A stretch of 64,000 nt of DNA, taken from the IMG/VR virus record IMGVR_UViG_3300022594_000001, one strand, 5' to 3'. A program made the position numbers and the translations under genes. The stretch comes from a virus (lineage: Duplodnaviria > Caudoviricetes). The notes under the pieces were generated by a model. That model did no database searches, was not told the DNA's origin, and was given only the letters and a program-made list of their open reading frames with translations. Below, one piece after another: positions 6,599 to 33,454 of the stretch (positions are counted from its first letter, which is position 1; each line of letters begins with the position of its first letter).

Positions 6599-8971
6599 AT
6601 GGCGCTTAATGTTTGGACTCAACGCTCGGGGTACTCGTTTGGTTCGTTTCAAGAACGAACAATGTTCAACGAGCAACTACCTGTAACTAATGATAACGGA
6701 GTTACATATTCTATAATTTCAGGACATCTTCCTAACGGTTTAAGAATTAGCGATAATAATATTATTGGCACACCGTACGAAGTGCCTCGCAATACTACAT
6801 TTACATTTTGTGTAAGAGCATCCCTAAACGGATCTATCTCAGACAGAACATTTACAATAGAAATTATAAATGCAGACGGACCAGAATTTGTGACTTCTGC
6901 TGGGGAATTACCAATAGGTCCGTCTGAGCAATTATTTACATTAGACAGTACATATATCGATTTTCAAATTGAAGTTACAGATTTAAATCTTAGTGCTACT
7001 CAACATTTAAGTTTTTTTATTTCCAAAGATGACGGCGAACTACCTCCGGGACTAGTGCTTACAACAGACGGAAGAATTGTAGGATTTGTTCAACCTGCGT
7101 TAAGTATTAAACCAAGTGACGGGTCAGGAACATATGACGAAAGTATTTACGATGCCGTTGCATACGACTTTGCGTTTAGACCCACAAACGGTTATGATAG
7201 TTATATTTACGATACAGTATTTTTTGATTACAATATTCCCTCAAACCCACCAAAAAAATTAAACCGTAACTACGAATTTAATGTAAGTGTTAGCGATGGA
7301 GATGTTGTTGTAAAAAGAAAATTTGATATATTTGTAGTAGGTGACGATTATTTCCGTGCCGACAATACATACCTATCTGGAGTATTTACTGCTGACGTTA
7401 CATACTTAAGAAAGCCGATATGGCTTACTGCCAGCTACCTAGGAACTTTTAGAGCTAATAACTATATCACGATTCCAATTCAGACGTACGATACTGATAA
7501 TATTATAAACTCCTTAGATTCATTAAATCCAGATCACACAGCAAGTGAATTGCCTCCAGGTATGGCATTTGACGAAGAGACTTCGGAAATTTACGGGTTT
7601 GTTCCTTATCAACCTGCAATTACTAAAACATATAAGTTTACAATTACATCAACTAGATTTAGTGATAAATTAGAAACTGCATCGTCATCTCGCACATTTA
7701 CTATTAATGTAATTGGAGAAATTGACAGTATTATCACATGGAGTACAGGTGCAGATTTAGGAGGAATTAATGCCAACTTTGTATCTACACTGAGCGTTAA
7801 AGCAGTTAGTTCTGTACCAGGTGCAACTGTATTATACTCACTAACTAGCGGATTATTACCTCCAGGATTAAGTTTAGACCTCGACGGAGAAATTGTAGGC
7901 AAAGTTAATCAGTTTAGCGATTCAACACATTTTGGGTTAACAAGATTTTATGATACCGTTAACGGTGATAAAATCATTACAACGTTTGACGGAAACACTA
8001 CTACCATTGATAGAGTATATACCTTTACTGTAGAAGCTAGAGATCAGTACGGCATTAGTGCCATAACTAGAGCATTTACTATTACAGTAGATACACCAAA
8101 TACCATTACTTATAGTAATATTCGTGTAAAACCGTTCCTTAAAAACACCATCGATGCGTGGGCAACTGATAGTAAATCGCAACGAGATAGATTTAAAGAA
8201 TTTATTAACGATACAAATATTTTTACACCAAGCAGTGTTTACCGTACAAACGATGCTAATTTTGGTTTGCAAACAGATTTATCTATGATTATCTACGCAG
8301 GAATAGAAACCACAGTTGCTGCCGCATATGTCGGCGCAATTGGATTAAATCATAAAAGAAAACGTTTCCAATTTGGCTCAATTAAAAAAGCAACTGCATA
8401 CGTACCGGGAACAAAAAATGAAGTATACGAAGTTGTATACTTAGAAATGATTGACCCCTTAGAACCAAAAGGTAAGCGTTTACCAAATGTTATTAAACAT
8501 TTAGGAACCGAAAATGTTAACCTTACAGTTGATAGCAATAACGCTTTTTGGAGTACAGCAATTAACGATATGACTGTTGATAGCCAGTATTCATCAAGAC
8601 CCGATCCTATTGTAACTGTTGACAGTCAGGGTTATTTTGCATCTAATCCTAATCCTAATACATATTTTCCTAGCAGCGTTACTAACTGGCAGGAAAGAAT
8701 TAGTAGCATAGGCGCTACTGAAAGAAATTACCTTCCTCTTTGGATGCGTACTATACAACCAGGATCAAAATCCGAACTAGGATTCCAATTAGCTGTTCCG
8801 CTATGCTATTGCAAGGCCGGAACTGCCGACGACATTATTTTGAACATTAAGCATAGCGGGTTTGATTTTTCATTAATTGACTACACCGTTGACCGATACA
8901 TAATTGATGCAGTCGAAGGTGCTACCGCTGATAAATATCTCGTATTTAGAAACGACAGGATTACAATATGA
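6599..8971 (+). CDS. baseplate/structural protein with repeated Ig-like (putative Ig, LPPGL) domains
   Basis: Repeated GxLPxGL..., GEIxG, YxFTV signatures. Confidence 0.65.
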   Translation: MALNVWTQRSGYSFGSFQERTMFNEQLPVTNDNGVTYSIISGHLPNGLRISDNNIIGTPYEVPRNTTFTFCVRASLNGSISDRTFTIEIINADGPEFVTSAGELPIGPSEQLFTLDSTYIDFQIEVTDLNLSATQHLSFFISKDDGELPPGLVLTTDGRIVGFVQPALSIKPSDGSGTYDESIYDAVAYDFAFRPTNGYDSYIYDTVFFDYNIPSNPPKKLNRNYEFNVSVSDGDVVVKRKFDIFVVGDDYFRADNTYLSGVFTADVTYLRKPIWLTASYLGTFRANNYITIPIQTYDTDNIINSLDSLNPDHTASELPPGMAFDEETSEIYGFVPYQPAITKTYKFTITSTRFSDKLETASSSRTFTINVIGEIDSIITWSTGADLGGINANFVSTLSVKAVSSVPGATVLYSLTSGLLPPGLSLDLDGEIVGKVNQFSDSTHFGLTRFYDTVNGDKIITTFDGNTTTIDRVYTFTVEARDQYGISAITRAFTITVDTPNTITYSNIRVKPFLKNTIDAWATDSKSQRDRFKEFINDTNIFTPSSVYRTNDANFGLQTDLSMIIYAGIETTVAAAYVGAIGLNHKRKRFQFGSIKKATAYVPGTKNEVYEVVYLEMIDPLEPKGKRLPNVIKHLGTENVNLTVDSNNAFWSTAINDMTVDSQYSSRPDPIVTVDSQGYFASNPNPNTYFPSSVTNWQERISSIGATERNYLPLWMRTIQPGSKSELGFQLAVPLCYCKAGTADDIILNIKHSGFDFSLIDYTVDRYIIDAVEGATADKYLVFRNDRITI

Positions 8972-9537
8972 CCAGTAATATAAATTTCTCTGCTATTGAC
9001 GAACAATACCCAATTGCTGGAAAAGACAACGATAGCCAAGGTTTCCGTGATAACTTTGGAATCATTAAAACAGCTCTAGGAGCAGCTAAATCGGAAATTA
9101 CCGAATTACAATCTAATTCCTTATTAACGCAAAATTTAGTAAACGGTGATCCGGTTAATAACGACCTAAATGGCAGTTCAATTAATAACGGTTATTACAA
9201 TAACTTCCACGGTGTATCTTATATTGCAACTGTTAACGGAACTGCGAGTATAAATGTAAGTACAGCTAGTATCTTTGTTTATACCCTTACTGGTAACACC
9301 ACATTTACATTTACAGGTTGGCCTGCAAATACCTACTACTGTAAAGTAAAAGTTCACTTTGTAAGTAGCGATAGTACATCACACACTGCATCGCTATATT
9401 CCGCAGGCGGTGGAACTGTTCGTTTAGATGGACAATTTACTGGTTCAATACCAGGAAATGGAAAGCACCAAATTATAGAAGCATGGTCATACAACGATGG
9501 TGCTACTGTATTTGTTAATTTTTTAGGTAGCTATTAA
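8968..9537 (+). CDS. virion structural protein (hypothetical)
   Basis: ATGA-coupled to the upstream gene; coiled-coil N-terminus, beta-rich C-terminus. Confidence 0.5.
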   Translation: MTSNINFSAIDEQYPIAGKDNDSQGFRDNFGIIKTALGAAKSEITELQSNSLLTQNLVNGDPVNNDLNGSSINNGYYNNFHGVSYIATVNGTASINVSTASIFVYTLTGNTTFTFTGWPANTYYCKVKVHFVSSDSTSHTASLYSAGGGTVRLDGQFTGSIPGNGKHQIIEAWSYNDGATVFVNFLGSY

Positions 9538-27725: not shown

Positions 27726-29549
27726 ATGGATATAAGATCATTAATTACAAAAATGGATTCTATTGAGCAAGGACTCAATGAAGCATTTAACATTAACACA
27801 GTGCAACAACAAGTTGGACAAATTGCCGATGCCGGACAGCGTCATGCACAATTAGCTACAATGGCTCAACAAAATGGACTTCCTGGTTTATATGATCCAG
27901 TGGATGGATCTTATGTTGGTTCAAACGGCAGCACTTCAAGCACTGCACCACACGAAGTTGATAATTTATTAGCATCAAAGGGACTAGTTCCAAAGAACGC
28001 TCATTCATCAACATTCCTAGGTAAAATGTTTGGTACAAGCGGCGATGCATATGATCAAGGACTACGTAGTCAAAGTGATAAAGTTGTTGCTGATCAAACT
28101 TCAGCAGAATTTAAAGCTACTAAGTTTAAAGAATTACAAGACATTATGAAGCAGTTATCTGCTCTTAAGAAAGTTGATTCTACACCAGCAACGACTAAAC
28201 CTGCAACACCTGCAACACCAGCAACAACTACACCAGCAACACCTGCAGCCGGACAAGCTGCAACTCCTGCTAAAGAAAGTAAAGAGTTTTCTTTTGCAGA
28301 TGATTTAATTGAAAGTTTTGGTTACACTGCTACTCCACTTAACGAAGAAGCAGCAACATTAGGACAACAAGCGGCAGTAGGTGCAGCAACATATGGCGGT
28401 GCCAAAGCAGCAGGTAAGATTTTAGGAAAAGCAATTCCGGGTGTTGGTTTAGCATTTGGTGCAGCAGATGCATATAATCGTGCTAAACAAGGCGACTGGG
28501 TAGGCGCTGGACTAGCAGGAGTTAGTGCTGGTTTAAGTTTAATTCCAGGGTTTGGTTGGATTCCAGCCGCTGCTATTGACATGTTTAACTTAGGTCGAGA
28601 TTTACGTGGTCCGACAGCTAGTGCCCAAGGTGCTATGCAGCATCCAGTTGAAAATGGTGCTATTGCACAATTACAAAAAATTATTGGTACAGAAGCAGAC
28701 GGTATATTTGGTCCTAAATCACAAGCTGCATTAAAAGTATGGCAGCAAAAGAAAGGACTTGTATCAGACGGCATTCCTGGTCCTAAAACTATGGCAGCAG
28801 CCGGTATTAAATTACAAGAAGCCTTCCAACCAAGAATTAAAACAACAGCCGAACTAATTAAAGAAACTGCTGATCGTTTAGAAGAAATTAATAACCCGCA
28901 ACCGTTATTGTTTTTAGATGACGTAGGTACAATGTTTGCATTAGCTCCAGATAATCAAGTTTACGAACTAGATGAAGGTACACTAAGCAATGTATGGGAT
29001 GCTATAAAAACTGGCTGGAATGGAAGTAAAGTTGCAACAGGCAAGTTAACCAAAGCTGGTGCTCCACAAATGGTTGGACAAGATAGCAAAGCGTTCCAAA
29101 AAGCACTTGCAGCACGTCCAGGATTAGAGCGCGGTGCATATAATACTTCTAAATTTGTTAAAAACAATCCAGTTAAAACCGCAGCAGCGTTAGGTGCTGC
29201 TGGGTTAGCAGGTGGATATGCTATGGGTAATAACAGTGGTCAAGGTGCTACACCGACTACTGGAGGCGGTGGTGGCGGTGGTGGCGACAAACCTGTTACC
29301 AAACCAGAAGAAAAACAACAAGTTTGCAGTCCAGAACAATTTGCGTTGATTGATAAAGCACGTAAAGTAATGGGCGAACTATCTGATGTTGCTGATAGCG
29401 ATCCAGCATTAGCACAAGTTCTTCAAACATATCAAGGACAAATTGATGCGTTGAATTGTGGAACTGCTCCAGCAGCAGGACAAGGTGCTACACCAGCAGC
29501 AGGCGGTACACCATTAACTAATTTCCAAAGTCAGATTGGCAAACAGTAA
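27726..29549 (+). CDS. modular protein with peptidoglycan-binding domain and Gly-rich hydrophobic segments (possible ejection protein)
   Basis: LQKIIG..ADGIFGPKSQAALKVWQQKKGLVSDGIPGPKT (PG_binding_1-like); GAGLAGVSAGLSLIPGFG hydrophobic segment. Confidence 0.6.
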   Translation: MDIRSLITKMDSIEQGLNEAFNINTVQQQVGQIADAGQRHAQLATMAQQNGLPGLYDPVDGSYVGSNGSTSSTAPHEVDNLLASKGLVPKNAHSSTFLGKMFGTSGDAYDQGLRSQSDKVVADQTSAEFKATKFKELQDIMKQLSALKKVDSTPATTKPATPATPATTTPATPAAGQAATPAKESKEFSFADDLIESFGYTATPLNEEAATLGQQAAVGAATYGGAKAAGKILGKAIPGVGLAFGAADAYNRAKQGDWVGAGLAGVSAGLSLIPGFGWIPAAAIDMFNLGRDLRGPTASAQGAMQHPVENGAIAQLQKIIGTEADGIFGPKSQAALKVWQQKKGLVSDGIPGPKTMAAAGIKLQEAFQPRIKTTAELIKETADRLEEINNPQPLLFLDDVGTMFALAPDNQVYELDEGTLSNVWDAIKTGWNGSKVATGKLTKAGAPQMVGQDSKAFQKALAARPGLERGAYNTSKFVKNNPVKTAAALGAAGLAGGYAMGNNSGQGATPTTGGGGGGGGDKPVTKPEEKQQVCSPEQFALIDKARKVMGELSDVADSDPALAQVLQTYQGQIDALNCGTAPAAGQGATPAAGGTPLTNFQSQIGKQ

Positions 29550-29567
29550 TACTGTACTAACCCAGAG

Positions 29568-29597
29568 AATGGCAGATTAATTCTGCCATTTTTCTTT
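29568..29597 (+). terminator. intrinsic terminator ending the late cargo operon
   Basis: AATGGCAGA-TTAAT-TCTGCCATT followed by TTTCTTT. Confidence 0.75.
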
Positions 29598-29603
29598 TAA
29601 AAG

Positions 29604-29632
29604 TTGACCTATAAACATAAGTAATATACAAT
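29604..29632 (+). promoter_or_regulatory. sigma70-type promoter with nested TAAGTA
   Basis: TTGACC-17bp-TACAAT; TAAGTA 29618-29623; AAGGAG RBS downstream. Confidence 0.7.
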
Positions 29633-29655
29633 TAAGGCTTATTAAGGAGAAACAC

Positions 29656-29913
29656 ATGGGCGGTCGTTCATATGGGCAAGAAGAGAGGGCAAAATTAGAA
29701 CGTTTGATTAGCGAAGGTTCTACAGTACTACGAGAAATCGAAGACTTGCAAGAAGGCTTAAAAGAAACTGTTAAAGCAGTTGCAGAAGAATTGCAAGTTA
29801 AACCAGCAGTTATTAATAAGGCTATTAAGATTGCACACAAAGGCAATTGGTCAGAACATAACGAAGACTGGGAAGAAATCGAAGCTATTTTAGATATTAC
29901 TAAACGTATCTAA
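29656..29913 (+). CDS. T4 DsbA-like dsDNA-binding protein
   Basis: 85 aa, helical; size and pattern (LISEGS...LK..V.EEL.VKP..INK.I...HK) resemble DsbA; strong RBS. Confidence 0.55.
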   Translation: MGGRSYGQEERAKLERLISEGSTVLREIEDLQEGLKETVKAVAEELQVKPAVINKAIKIAHKGNWSEHNEDWEEIEAILDITKRI

Positions 29914-29959
29914 TAAGTATTAAATTATAAAAGGTAGGCGAGGCCTTTAAGCCGCACTG

Positions 29960-29988
29960 TAGGTATTTGTCAGCCTAAAAATGACAAA
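29960..29988 (+). ncRNA. H-type RNA pseudoknot immediately 5' of the DNA polymerase Shine-Dalgarno
   Basis: S1 UAGGU(29960-64)/GCCUA(29973-77), L1=A, S2 UUUGUCA(29966-72)/UGACAAA(29982-88), L3=AAAA, then AGGAGA. Confidence 0.55.
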
Positions 29989-30003
29989 AGGAGAAAATAA
30001 TAC

Positions 30004-32670
30004 ATGTCTTATGTAGACGCATACTTTGATCGCGACAACGACATCATTAAAGTTGTTGAACGCAGTAAAAAAGGTGAACGAGAATTTAAAGATATTCCCG
30101 TTAAACATACCTTTTATTACAAAGACTCAAGAGGAAAACATTTATCAATCTATGGTGATCCCCTTTCACGAGTCATTTGTAAAAATACAAAAGATTTTAG
30201 AAAAGAGTTAGCAATTAACTCAGGCAAACAAATCTTTGAGGGAGATATCAACCCAATCTTTGTTTGTTTATCAGAACACTATATTAATATCGATGCTCCA
30301 AAACTAAACGTAGCGTTTTTTGATATTGAGGTGGACTTTGATCCAGAACGTGGCTATGCAAGTCCAGATGATGCATTTATGCCTATTACTGCGATCGCTG
30401 TTCACCTACAATGGTTAGACACTATGATTTGTTTAGCAATTCCTCCAAAGACATTAACTATGGAAGAAGCTAAGAAGCAAGTCGAAGAATTCCCTAATAC
30501 ATATTTGTTTGATAACGAAGCAGATATGCTAGATATGTTCTTAGATCTAATTCAAGACGCAGATGTGTTAAGTGGATGGAACTCAGAAGGCTTTGATATT
30601 CCATATACCGTTAACCGTGTTACTAAAACATTAAGCAAAGAAGATACAAGACGTTTTTGTTTGTTTAATCAGTTTCCACGTAGACGTGAATACGAAAAGT
30701 TCGGGCGTGATGCAGTAACATTTGATTTAGTCGGTCGTGTACACTTAGATAGTTTAGAATTATATCGCAAATATACGTATGAAGAACGTCATAGCTATCG
30801 ACTAGATGCTATTGCAGAGTATGAACTAGGCGAACGTAAAACACAGTACGAAGGTACATTGGATCAACTATACAACAATGACTTTAAAACATTCATTGAA
30901 TATAACAGACAAGACTGTGCGCTTCTTGATCGTTTAGATAAGAAGCTTAAATTCTTAGACTTAGCTAACACACTAGCACACGAAAACACTGTATTACTAC
31001 AAACTACAATGGGTGCTGTGGCTGTTACTGAACAAGCTATTATTAACGAAGCACATCGTAGAGGTTTCCAAGTACCTAATCGTCCTAAAATGGACGAACG
31101 TGAAAATAACCAAGCTGCCGGTGCGTATGTTGCATATCCTAAAGAGGGTTTGCAAGATTGGGTTGGATCATTGGATATTAACTCACTATATCCTAGTGCA
31201 ATTAGAGCACTTAATATGGGTCCCGAAACCATTGTTGGACAATTGCGTCAAACTAAAACAGATGCATATATCGAAAACCAAATGGCAAAAGGCAAATCAT
31301 TTGCTGCTGCATGGGAAGGTAAGTTTGGTACAGATGAGTATGAAGCTGTAATGGCTCAGGAAATTGGTACTGATATTACTATTGACTGGGAAAATGGTGA
31401 AAGCGATGTAGTTAGTGCTGCTGAAGTATATAGATTAATCTTCGAAAGTAATCAACCATGGATGATTAGTGCTAACGGTACTATCTTTACATGGGAAAAA
31501 GAAGGTATTATCCCAGGTCTACTAAAACGTTGGTATGCAGAACGTAAAGAGATGCAAGCCAAACTAAAGGAGGCTATTAATGCTAGTAACAAAATTGAAG
31601 AAGAATATTGGGACAAGAGACAGTTGGTTAAAAAGATTAACCTTAATTCGCTCTATGGTGCCATTCTTAATCCTGGCTGTCGCTTTTTCGATAAACGTAT
31701 CGGCCAATCTACTACCCTTACTGGACGTCAGATTGCAAAGCACATGGCTGGAAAAGTCAATGAAATCATTGCAGGAGAATATAACCACGTCGGTAAGGCA
31801 ATTATCTATGGAGACACCGACTCATGTTATTTCTCTGCTTATAAAACGCTAAAGAAAGAAATCGATGCTGGGCATATTCCATGGACTAAAGAAAGTGTAG
31901 TGCAGTTATATGATCAAATCGGTGAAGAGGTTAATGCCACATTCCCACAATTCATGCTCGATTATTTCCATTGTCCAAAGCGTATGGGTGAAGTTATTAA
32001 AGCAGGGCGAGAAGTTGTTGGATCTAAAGCATTGTTTATTACTAAAAAGCGTTATGCCGTACTTGTTTATGACAAAGAAGGTAAGCGTAAAGATAAAGAT
32101 GGTAAACCCGGCGACATCAAAGCTATGGGGTTGGACTTAAAACGCTCAGATACTCCTGAATTTATTCAAGACTTCCTAAGCGATGTATTAGAAATGGTAC
32201 TAACTGGTGCTACTGAAAAAGAAGTATTAGACTTTATTACTGAATTTAGAATTAAATTTAAGGCTCGCCCTGGTTGGGAAAAGGGTTCACCAAAACGTGC
32301 CAATAACATTACTATGTATCAAGGTAAAGAAAAAGATAATGGCAAGACTAACATGCCAGGTCATGTACGTGCAAGTATTAATTGGAACACATTAAAGCGC
32401 ATGTTTGATGACAAATACTCAATGAATATTACCGACGGTGCTAAAGTTATTGTATGTAAACTCAAAGCCAACCCATTAGAGTACGCAAGTGTCGCATATC
32501 CAGTCGACGAATTGAGGTTACCCCAGTGGTTTAAAGATTTACCTTTTAATCATGCAGAAATGGAAGCTACTATTATCGATAAGAAGCTAGAAAACCTTAT
32601 TGGTGTATTGAAGTGGCGTATTGCTGACACTGAAGAAAAGAATACATTTAACAGTTTATTCGAGTTCTAA
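30004..32670 (+). CDS. polB: family B DNA polymerase (T4 gp43-like)
   Basis: Exo FDIE, DINSLYPS, KINLNSLYG, YGDTDS. Confidence 0.95.
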   Translation: MSYVDAYFDRDNDIIKVVERSKKGEREFKDIPVKHTFYYKDSRGKHLSIYGDPLSRVICKNTKDFRKELAINSGKQIFEGDINPIFVCLSEHYINIDAPKLNVAFFDIEVDFDPERGYASPDDAFMPITAIAVHLQWLDTMICLAIPPKTLTMEEAKKQVEEFPNTYLFDNEADMLDMFLDLIQDADVLSGWNSEGFDIPYTVNRVTKTLSKEDTRRFCLFNQFPRRREYEKFGRDAVTFDLVGRVHLDSLELYRKYTYEERHSYRLDAIAEYELGERKTQYEGTLDQLYNNDFKTFIEYNRQDCALLDRLDKKLKFLDLANTLAHENTVLLQTTMGAVAVTEQAIINEAHRRGFQVPNRPKMDERENNQAAGAYVAYPKEGLQDWVGSLDINSLYPSAIRALNMGPETIVGQLRQTKTDAYIENQMAKGKSFAAAWEGKFGTDEYEAVMAQEIGTDITIDWENGESDVVSAAEVYRLIFESNQPWMISANGTIFTWEKEGIIPGLLKRWYAERKEMQAKLKEAINASNKIEEEYWDKRQLVKKINLNSLYGAILNPGCRFFDKRIGQSTTLTGRQIAKHMAGKVNEIIAGEYNHVGKAIIYGDTDSCYFSAYKTLKKEIDAGHIPWTKESVVQLYDQIGEEVNATFPQFMLDYFHCPKRMGEVIKAGREVVGSKALFITKKRYAVLVYDKEGKRKDKDGKPGDIKAMGLDLKRSDTPEFIQDFLSDVLEMVLTGATEKEVLDFITEFRIKFKARPGWEKGSPKRANNITMYQGKEKDNGKTNMPGHVRASINWNTLKRMFDDKYSMNITDGAKVIVCKLKANPLEYASVAYPVDELRLPQWFKDLPFNHAEMEATIIDKKLENLIGVLKWRIADTEEKNTFNSLFEF

Positions 32671-32671
32671 T

Positions 32672-33454
32672 ATGAAAATAATTATAGTAGGGTACGGATT
32701 TGTTGGTAAAGCAGTATTCAACGCCCTTAAAACAAAGTACAATGTTGTTATTGTTGATCCGCAGTATACAACAAATGAAATTAAACATCATCCAGATGCT
32801 GATGGTATTATCGTCTGTGTCCCTACACCTAGTTTAGACAACGGTGGATGTGATAGTAGTGCTGTTGCAAATGTGTTAGATCAAGTATTGAATGACAATA
32901 CTCCTATTCTAATTAAAAGCACAGTAACCCCAGTAGTTACTGAAGCGTTAAACGAGATATATTCAAATTTAACCATTACATACAGTCCAGAATTTTTACG
33001 TGCTAAGACTGCCAACCAAGACTTCCTTGATCAGACACACGTAGTTTTTGGCGGTGTAGATCCAGATGGCTTTTGGCAAGATGTGTTTACACCAGTATTA
33101 ACTAACTGCAAACTATACTTTCACTGTAGTCCAACCGAAGCAGCATTGATAAAGTATTCACGAAACGCCTTTTTGGCAACTAAAGTGTCATTCTTTAATC
33201 AATTGTTTGACTTATGCAATGCGTCAGGTGCAGACTTTGATGTAGTTAGACAGTTAGTAGCACAAGATACTCGCATTGGTGCTGGACATAGCCTAGTACC
33301 AGGGCTAGATGGAGAAAGGGGATTCGGTGGTGCGTGTTTCCCTAAGGATACAGCAGCACTTTTACACTATGCAAATAGCAAAGGCATTAATTTAAGCGTT
33401 ATAGATTCGGCTGTTAATTACAATAAAACGGTAAGAAATTCTATTGACATTTAA
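32672..33454 (+). CDS. UDP-glucose/GDP-mannose dehydrogenase family, lacking the C-terminal domain (start reassigned to 32672)
   Basis: GYGFVG, CVPTP, KSTV, SPEFL, KYSRNAFLATKVSF, GFGGACFPKD; 260 aa. Confidence 0.85.
   Translation: MKIIIVGYGFVGKAVFNALKTKYNVVIVDPQYTTNEIKHHPDADGIIVCVPTPSLDNGGCDSSAVANVLDQVLNDNTPILIKSTVTPVVTEALNEIYSNLTITYSPEFLRAKTANQDFLDQTHVVFGGVDPDGFWQDVFTPVLTNCKLYFHCSPTEAALIKYSRNAFLATKVSFFNQLFDLCNASGADFDVVRQLVAQDTRIGAGHSLVPGLDGERGFGGACFPKDTAALLHYANSKGINLSVIDSAVNYNKTVRNSIDI

Follow-up and report, generated by a model that had tools for sequence, protein, structure and literature searches.

The DNA examined here, hereafter the window, is a 64,000-nt stretch from an uncultured giant phage. 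Within it a 90-nt spacer, which we call the polB leader, separates an open reading frame (ORF) for a DsbA-like protein from polB, the gene for a family-B DNA polymerase. An H-type pseudoknot abutting the Shine-Dalgarno (SD) sequence of polB had been predicted in this leader from the window's sequence, and the segments named in that original prediction all lie where it placed them: UAGGU (29960-64), a single A (29965), UUUGUCA (29966-72), GCCUA (29973-77), AAAA (29978-81), UGACAAA (29982-88) and AGGAGA (29989-94), followed by the ATG at 30004, together with a second UAGGC (29935-39), GGC (29937-39), GCC (29943-45) and TAAGTA (29914-19). When we compared the polB leaders of related phages, the pseudoknot proved to be real and conserved, but only a core of 3 bp in its first helix (S1) and 5 bp in its second (S2) is kept, and a second module had been overlooked. 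Except in a distant clade with a single module, the leaders carry two independent copies of the module in tandem, not a single pseudoknot, separated by a variable linker of 4 to 8 nt.

By tblastn, the window's polymerase shares 50% identity with that of Sinorhizobium phage Phosso and 44% with those of the 121Q group; its identity to cultured giant phages (Phosso, Atu_ph07, and the 121Q group) is only 44 to 50%, and a DNA search of cultured phages did not find a close relative of the window. In IMG/VR, polB has more than 600 close relatives. We fetched two sets of loci by polB similarity, the first comprising 80 loci at 81 to 92% identity and the second 80 more divergent loci for which the polymerase of one relative (L067) served as the query. 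A covariance model, R1, was built from 63 leaders and matched 5' of polB in all 160 loci. These loci supplied 125 distinct leaders; pattern scans added approximately 10 more to give ∼135, all of them from uncultured freshwater phages. The motif is absent from the polB leaders of Phosso, Atu_ph07, 121Q, and XbC2, which we read directly, and an R1 search with filters off returned nothing in these four leaders or at the T4 gene 43 leader. A literature search for a tandem pseudoknot motif in polB leaders found nothing.

Read from 5' to 3', the conserved unit consists of GGY, a linker of 1 to 3 nt, the 5' strand of a 4- to 7-bp stem, GCC, NNAAA, and the 3' strand of the stem. As judged from the sequences, each module forms a mini H-type pseudoknot: a 3-bp S1 is stacked on an S2 of ∼5 bp, no nucleotide separates the two helices, and the 5-nt, A-rich NNAAA loop is positioned to span the groove of S1. 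It belongs to the H-type class in that the 5' flank pairs with the hairpin loop and both helices are backed by covariation. In its family form, module 2 consists of GGU, RUU, a 5-bp stem, and the 8-nt loop GCCNNAAA. The loop has this length in 115 of 125 leaders, and GGY and GCC stand 8 nt apart in an equal number (115/125). Loops across the family read GCCAUAAA or GCCNNAAA. In a divergent subgroup of leaders (L145, L149, L142, L162, L158, and L157, at ∼566 to 593 in each), module 2 lacks the AUUUG linker and resembles a second module 1 (GGU, U, GCCG, GCC, AUAAG, CGGU), which suggests a duplication as the origin of the two modules. The positions of both modules in the window, and of the features around them, are given in Table 1.

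Table 1. Features of the window's polB locus, with small ORFs and single-module elements from related loci (locus name before the position).
Feature	Position	Strand	Remarks
Upstream gene, DsbA-like small DNA-binding protein (Phage_DsbA)	29656..29913	+	Pfam PF11126, phrog_639
ATAAGTA box, possible promoter element	29913..29919	+	contains TAAGTA 29914-19; 13 nt 5' of module 1
Module 1 (PK1)	29933..29955	+	covariance model alignment
Module 1, S1 5' strand	29933-35		GGU; followed by linker AG
Module 1, stem 5' strand	29938-42		GCG(a)G; A29941 bulged
Module 1, S1 3' strand	29943-45		GCC
Module 1, loop remainder	29946-51		UUUAAG
Module 1, stem 3' strand	29952-55		CCGC
Variable linker separating modules	29956..29961	+	4-8 nt; sequence not conserved across leaders
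Module 2 (PK2)	29962..29986	+	conserved core of first-proposed pseudoknot
Module 2, S1 5' strand	29962-64		GGU
Module 2, linker	29965-67		AUU
Module 2, stem 5' strand	29968-72		UGUCA
Module 2, S1 3' strand	29973-75		GCC
Module 2, loop remainder	29976-81		UAAAAA
Module 2, stem 3' strand	29982-86		UGACA
Window-specific S1 extension	within 29960..29988	+	U29960-A29977, A29961-U29976; also in L068; not conserved
Window-specific S2 extension	within 29960..29988	+	U29966-A29988, U29967-A29987; also in L068; not conserved
Shine-Dalgarno sequence	29989..29994	+	AGGAGA
Family-B DNA polymerase gene (polB), 888 aa	30004..32670	+	Pfam DNA_pol_B and DNA_pol_B_exo1; ATG at 30004
Cys-rich ORF, CxxC-type motifs	L053:1782-1934
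Cys-rich ORF, CxxC-type motifs	L067:2892-3014
Cys-rich ORF, CxxC-type motifs	L088:431-605
Cys-rich ORF, CxxC-type motifs	L140:465-603
Single-module element + leader ORF	L396:8701-8799	minus
Single-module element + leader ORF	L397:3090-3169	minus

Covariation among the relatives' polB leaders bore out the prediction of a conserved structured RNA, with strong covariation in both hairpins. Across the two hairpins, 92.9% of alignment cells pair and 8 of 10 pairs have changed on both sides, a result reached by none of 500 shuffles. RNAalifold independently recovered the same two hairpins, and all eight of the pairs it predicted covary. Every pair of the module 1 stem shows covariation, as do four of the five pairs of S2 in module 2. 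A module 2 alignment of 73 distinct sequences has all cells paired across 8 pairs, although selection of its rows by the three inner S2 pairs biases the S2 percentage upward.

The short S1 helix required separate treatment: its GG and CC hardly vary in either module, and a lack of variation is uninformative alone. IMG/VR was therefore scanned for loop variants with the 5' triplet left free. Every family member whose module 1 loop starts with GCU (12 contigs, 6 distinct leaders) carries AGU instead of GGU, an exchange of G-C for A-U at the first S1 pair of module 1. The same combination of AGU with GCU is found in a distant single-module clade (module 2 type, 2 contigs); a first scan for GCD in module 2 had given chance matches only, among the matches listed, and a tighter module 2 pattern then revealed this clade. 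Loops reading ACC are always paired with GGU, such that U-A replaces U.G (module 2 of L067 and of three further distinct leaders, and module 1 of L158), and in module 1 the loop G faces either GGU or GGC, so that the pair is U.G or C-G. The C.A combination was not seen at S1 in the leaders compared, and the sole break in S1 is UGU with GCC in L014. In gap-free alignments, the three S1 pairs of module 1 are GC 38, AU 3, and other 1; GC 42; and UG 36, CG 5, and UA 1. Those of module 2 are GC 72 and AU 1; GC 73; and UG 70 and UA 3. Read as evolutionary events, the S1 double changes arose at least twice, once per module type, and each event may represent a single clade. Scans for a variant of the middle pair (a GDC loop), in viral contigs for module 1 and in metagenome contigs for module 2, returned random matches only, and the middle G-C is therefore invariant within the searched contigs. 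No family member came up when we scanned for an HCC loop in module 1 alongside a canonical module 2.

Because the U.G pair of S1 would be A.C on the opposite strand, the folded molecule is the sense RNA. We also entertained a reading in which the motif is a DNA-binding site, with two GCC-ATAAA boxes recognized by the DsbA-like protein, and rejected it on account of the RNA-type covariation of the stems, the strand-specific U.G, and the persistence of the motif where dsbA is not upstream. Eight relatives keep the motif with a different upstream gene.

The element is restricted to a single place in each genome. R1 matches the window once, and a strict single-module scan also yields one match, against 0.31 expected. 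In the second-best R1 match in the window (9297-9371, minus strand; 13 bits, E value 0.27), a short hairpin comes after GGUAUUUG; this match, which is antisense to an ORF at 8968-9537 and lies inside it, is most likely due to chance. Throughout 580 kb of related loci, 148 module matches fall in polB leaders and 3 elsewhere, which is the chance level, and four related contigs of 210 to 353 kb (one of them estimated to be 99% complete) contain one significant match each. In its structure, covariation, position, uniqueness per genome, and sense-strand polarity, the polB leader is a conserved cis-acting structured RNA.

The window's own copy departs from the family form. Together with its nearest relative, L068, the window makes up a subclade in which both helices are extended and the loop holds one extra A, so that the loop of the window's module 2 is 9 nt long. 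The outer S1 pairs, 29960/77 and 29961/76, form in 53 and 52 of 125 leaders, whereas shuffling leads one to expect 51.7 and 50.1. For S2, the inner 5 bp are paired in 62 of 62 leaders, with two of these pairs covarying heavily, and one of the outer two fails to form in 50 of the 62. The window's extra S1 and S2 pairs, which form no more frequently than chance would give, are clade specific and not family-wide. The 5-bp/1-A/7-bp geometry that had led to the description of this pseudoknot as gene 32 type does not, therefore, extend beyond the window's subclade; in the family form, S1 has 3 bp, the linker 3 nt, S2 5 bp, and the loop 5 nt.

This bears on the possibility of a gene 32-type operator, in which the phage single-stranded DNA-binding protein would nucleate at the pseudoknot and from there coat the ribosome-binding site (RBS). 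For the window's copy a drawing with 5 bp, 1 nt, and 7 bp is possible, and the T2 gene 32 pseudoknot has a similar layout. That of T4 gene 32 is a documented autoregulatory pseudoknot of a virus (PMC3014915). Nonetheless, we regard such an operator as highly improbable here, given that the 5/1/7 geometry is not conserved, that the downstream gene is polB and not the gene for the single-stranded DNA-binding protein, and that no unstructured A/U-rich tract precedes the RBS, the gap being 0 to 3 nt versus ∼40 nt in T4.

Module 1 of the window (29930-29955) is also atypical, with the bulged A29941 in its stem and a 9-nt loop, GCCUUUAAG. Its S1 could be extended to AAAGGU/GCCUUU (6 bp), an extension that is incompatible with the stem because only 3 loop nucleotides would remain, and the window's module 1 may thus adopt a local either/or fold. 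L001 and L068 share its loop and S1 extension, but their stem is intact. When the window's leader was folded as a single sequence, the nested minimum free energy (MFE) structure had -19.9 kcal/mol (z = -1.1), no better than shuffled sequences, and it picked the AAAGGU/GCCUUU hairpin, which is specific to the window, for module 1. Two alternative folds of the leader had also been suggested. The first, in which the upstream UAGGC would pair with GCCUA, fares poorly in the relatives: 59 of 125 leaders have no GGC at that place at all, and five pairs are possible in only 13 of 125. The second, a hairpin of GGC with GCC, turned out to belong to the upstream copy of the same pseudoknot module, i.e., module 1.

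The placement of the element relative to the SD is tight. In 119 of 120 distinct leaders the SD core begins 0 to 3 nt past the 5-bp stem of hairpin 2, while the spacing from the SD to the start codon is loose (5 to 13 nt). The motif always precedes the first SD of the polB translation unit, including where that unit begins with a small ORF. In four relatives (L053, L067, L088, and L140) a Cys-rich ORF of 40 to 56 aa lies between the motif and polB and may encode a zinc-ribbon mini-protein that is cotranslated with the polymerase. Two members of a more distant polB clade, L396 and L397, have a single module and then a poorly conserved leader ORF of 15 to 20 aa, the TGA stop of which overlaps the polB ATG in L396; upstream of the L396/L397 locus are a 226-aa gene, a ClpP-like gene, and a dsbA-like gene. 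The small ORFs run into the polB start, with ATGA or TAATG as the overlap except in L067 (14 nt), an arrangement that would be expected for translational coupling. A segment able to pair with the SD was sought by eye in the leaders and none was seen, and the MFE fold of the window's leader leaves the SD unpaired. Given that the leader does not sequester its own SD, an on/off effect would require either a bound factor or steric hindrance.

Promoter-like sequences precede the element in a number of relatives. A box of the type [A/T]ATAA[A/G]TA occurs no more than 40 nt 5' of module 1 in ∼56 of 131 leaders, in some of which the upstream gene is not dsbA, and other leaders have TGnTATAAT in the equivalent place; from the sequences, this looks like a swap of promoter type before one leader. 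The window's TAAGTA box aligns with the ATAAATA-type box, which stands ∼10 to 13 nt upstream of module 1 in the leaders sampled. TAATAARTA shows no enrichment in the window, with 3 occurrences versus 4.1 expected. The ATAAATA/ATAAGTA box resembles the T4-type late promoter TATAAATA; one would not expect such a promoter before a polymerase gene.

In the window itself, we found no promoter-like site directly upstream of the leader. The nearest is a sigma-70-like site at 29604-29632 (TTGACC, 17 nt, TACAAT), just 5' of the dsbA-like gene, so dsbA and polB may be cotranscribed, in which case the motif would be intercistronic. The dsbA-like gene closes with tandem stops, TAA TAA (29911-29916). One metatranscriptome contig covers 29860-30202 without differences, although contigs of this kind cannot show a transcription start site, the strand, or whether RNA or contaminating DNA was sequenced. 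Directly 3' of polB is a short UDP-glucose dehydrogenase-like gene with Pfam and PHROG matches (32621-33454), the longest ORF of which has a TTG start at 32621 and overlaps the end of polB by ∼50 nt.

These boxes are relevant to a reading in which the leader is a constitutive structure that has no effector, the 5'-proximal pseudoknots either shielding the mRNA from 5'-end-dependent decay or offering the 30S subunit a standby or enhancer platform. In many relatives the boxes lie ∼5 to 13 nt 5' of module 1, which would place its GGY close to the transcript's 5' end; the SD is free; and the T4 gene 32 mRNA, whose leader is pseudoknotted, is unusually stable (PMC3014915). However, a simple stabilizer needs neither invariant loop sequences nor a fixed spacing of 0 to 3 nt to the SD, restriction to one gene per genome would be odd for a general stabilizer, and in the window the closest promoter-like site lies before dsbA and not before the leader. 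We consider a purely constitutive role unlikely, if by no means far-fetched.

The invariant nucleotides raise a different possibility, namely, that the ∼25-nt pseudoknots each act as a minimal aptamer, the ligand being a small molecule (a nucleotide, a deoxynucleoside triphosphate, or a 7-deazapurine intermediate, for example). The fold, stabilized by its ligand beside the SD, would then tune the translation of polB and perhaps also of the downstream modification operon. Unpaired or tertiary nucleotides that do not vary (GG, CC, and AA) next to stems that covary freely are what a riboswitch might be expected to show, as are two like modules with a variable linker ahead of an SD, a layout that recalls the tandem small aptamers of guanidine-II and tandem preQ1-I. 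The original prediction had pointed to Rfam as a place to look for relatives of the leader, but no family matched: a cmscan of 29500-30400 against Rfam 15, with E values up to 10, gave noise only (12 to 22 bits versus gathering scores of 37 to 51), and no riboswitch family, whether preQ1, SAM-II/V, guanidine, or fluoride, and no phage motif was matched. Nor is there a conserved alternative fold that could act as an expression platform, the SD never being sequestered. A single-module form exists, a 3-bp S1 with no junction nucleotides between the stems leaves little room for a pocket, and the gene controlled is a polymerase, for which protein-based autoregulation has a known precedent. On balance a riboswitch strikes us as distinctly unlikely. 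More doubtful still is the proposal that these pseudoknots would be the smallest tandem aptamers yet and would form a new riboswitch class, sensing a metabolite of the nucleotide pool or of 7-deazapurine metabolism; were it true, polymerase synthesis, and perhaps the downstream DNA modification operon, would be coupled to precursor supply in giant phages.

The element probably sets the amount of polymerase that is made. That it would do so at the level of translation, that its effector would be a protein, and which protein this would be, we infer. Our favored explanation is a translational operator worked by a protein, to which we give somewhat less than an even chance, most of it going to autogenous control by the polymerase, by analogy with known phage systems. 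An operator that needs a bound factor is suggested because the fold is specific to one gene and lies against the first SD, because its loop nucleotides are invariant, and because the SD is not sequestered by the RNA itself. In this mechanism a protein would bind the folded modules and block the loading of 30S subunits on the adjacent SD. By analogy with gp43 of T4 and RB69, the effector would be free DNA polymerase, binding the leader when not engaged on primer-template DNA, and polymerase synthesis would thereby track demand. In relatives with a small ORF before polB, repression would be passed on through the overlapping stop and start codons.

Several considerations weigh against a protein-worked operator of this kind. 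A pocket for a small ligand would fit the invariant GG/CC and the A-rich loop equally well, and two similar small modules 5' of an SD recall tandem riboswitch architectures. The 3-bp S1 is weak by itself, and a constitutive role, in 5'-end protection or as a standby site, is possible. The leader has no similarity to the T4 operator, in sequence or by covariance model. In addition, the T4 gene 43 operator has no known pseudoknot, and some T4-related polymerases lack autoregulation (PMC3014915).

Only in T4 and RB69 is it known in detail how a viral DNA polymerase controls its own translation, and there the control operates via one hairpin. A large clade of uncultured freshwater giant phages has a structurally different element at the equivalent place, an uncatalogued tandem mini-pseudoknot whose covariation is unusually clean even in the 3-bp pseudoknot helix. 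At ∼60 nt, this RNA is suited to asking how replicative polymerases, or another effector, recognize RNA, and how ribosome loading may be gated by a 3+5-bp pseudoknot beside an SD. The motif is a candidate for a new Rfam family and could serve as a marker for this phage clade.

Among known systems, preQ1-I and guanidine-II (mini-ykkC) riboswitches are very small modules (∼25 to 35 nt) that lie beside an SD. PreQ1-I has an A-rich strand in a helix groove, and guanidine-II has two similar modules with a variable linker. In the polB leader, unlike in preQ1-I, it is the 5' flank and not the 3' tail that pairs with the hairpin loop, and the leader differs from both families in having no Rfam match and in keeping the SD outside any helix.

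The T2 gene 32 pseudoknot has coaxial stems of ∼5 to 6 and 7 bp and a single-nucleotide loop 1. Like the gene 32 pseudoknots of T4 and T2, the element described here is of the H type and lies in the leader of a phage replication gene, and the window's copy can be drawn with similar stem lengths. It differs in that the gene is polB, the conserved stems are of 3 and 5 bp, the modules are in tandem, and the SD is 0 to 3 nt away; in T4 gene 32, in contrast, 67 nt separate the pseudoknot from the AUG, and an A/U-rich unstructured tract for cooperative binding of gp32 comes after it (PMC3014915).

The precedent for autogenous control by T4 gp43, on which the original prediction drew, is genuine: gp43 represses its own mRNA via an 18-nt hairpin and the RBS (PMC3014915). 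Both this operator and that of RB69 gene 43 resemble the polB leader in belonging to the gene for a family-B replicative polymerase of a tailed phage and in overlapping or abutting the RBS. The T4 gene 43 leader, read from NC_000866, consists of AGCCU, an 8-nt loop, GGGCU, 7 nt, and AAGGA, with a -10 box upstream. The hairpin of the T4/RB69 gene 43 operator measures 16 to 18 nt. Its 5-bp stem and 8-nt loop near the SD match the family form of hairpin 2 (the window's loop being 9 nt), and a -10-like box directly upstream is found both in T4 and in some relatives of the window. The operator loop contains UAAC in T4 and RB69 and UAAA in RB49 (PMC3014915); the UAAA tetrad is common in the polB leader loops as well, but at a different position in the loop. 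There is no detectable homology, the loop consensus being GCCNNAAA here and AAUAACUC in the T4-type operator. The leaders described here have two modules, each pseudoknotted via its 5' GGY, and a hairpin that abuts the SD at 0 to 3 nt, and binding by the polymerase, which is established in T4, is putative here. Finally, the rpsO (S15) operator of Escherichia coli, in which a protein-bound pseudoknot at the RBS controls the translation of the bound protein's own mRNA (PMC3014915), is a bacterial ribosomal protein system of unrelated sequence whose pseudoknot includes the RBS region.

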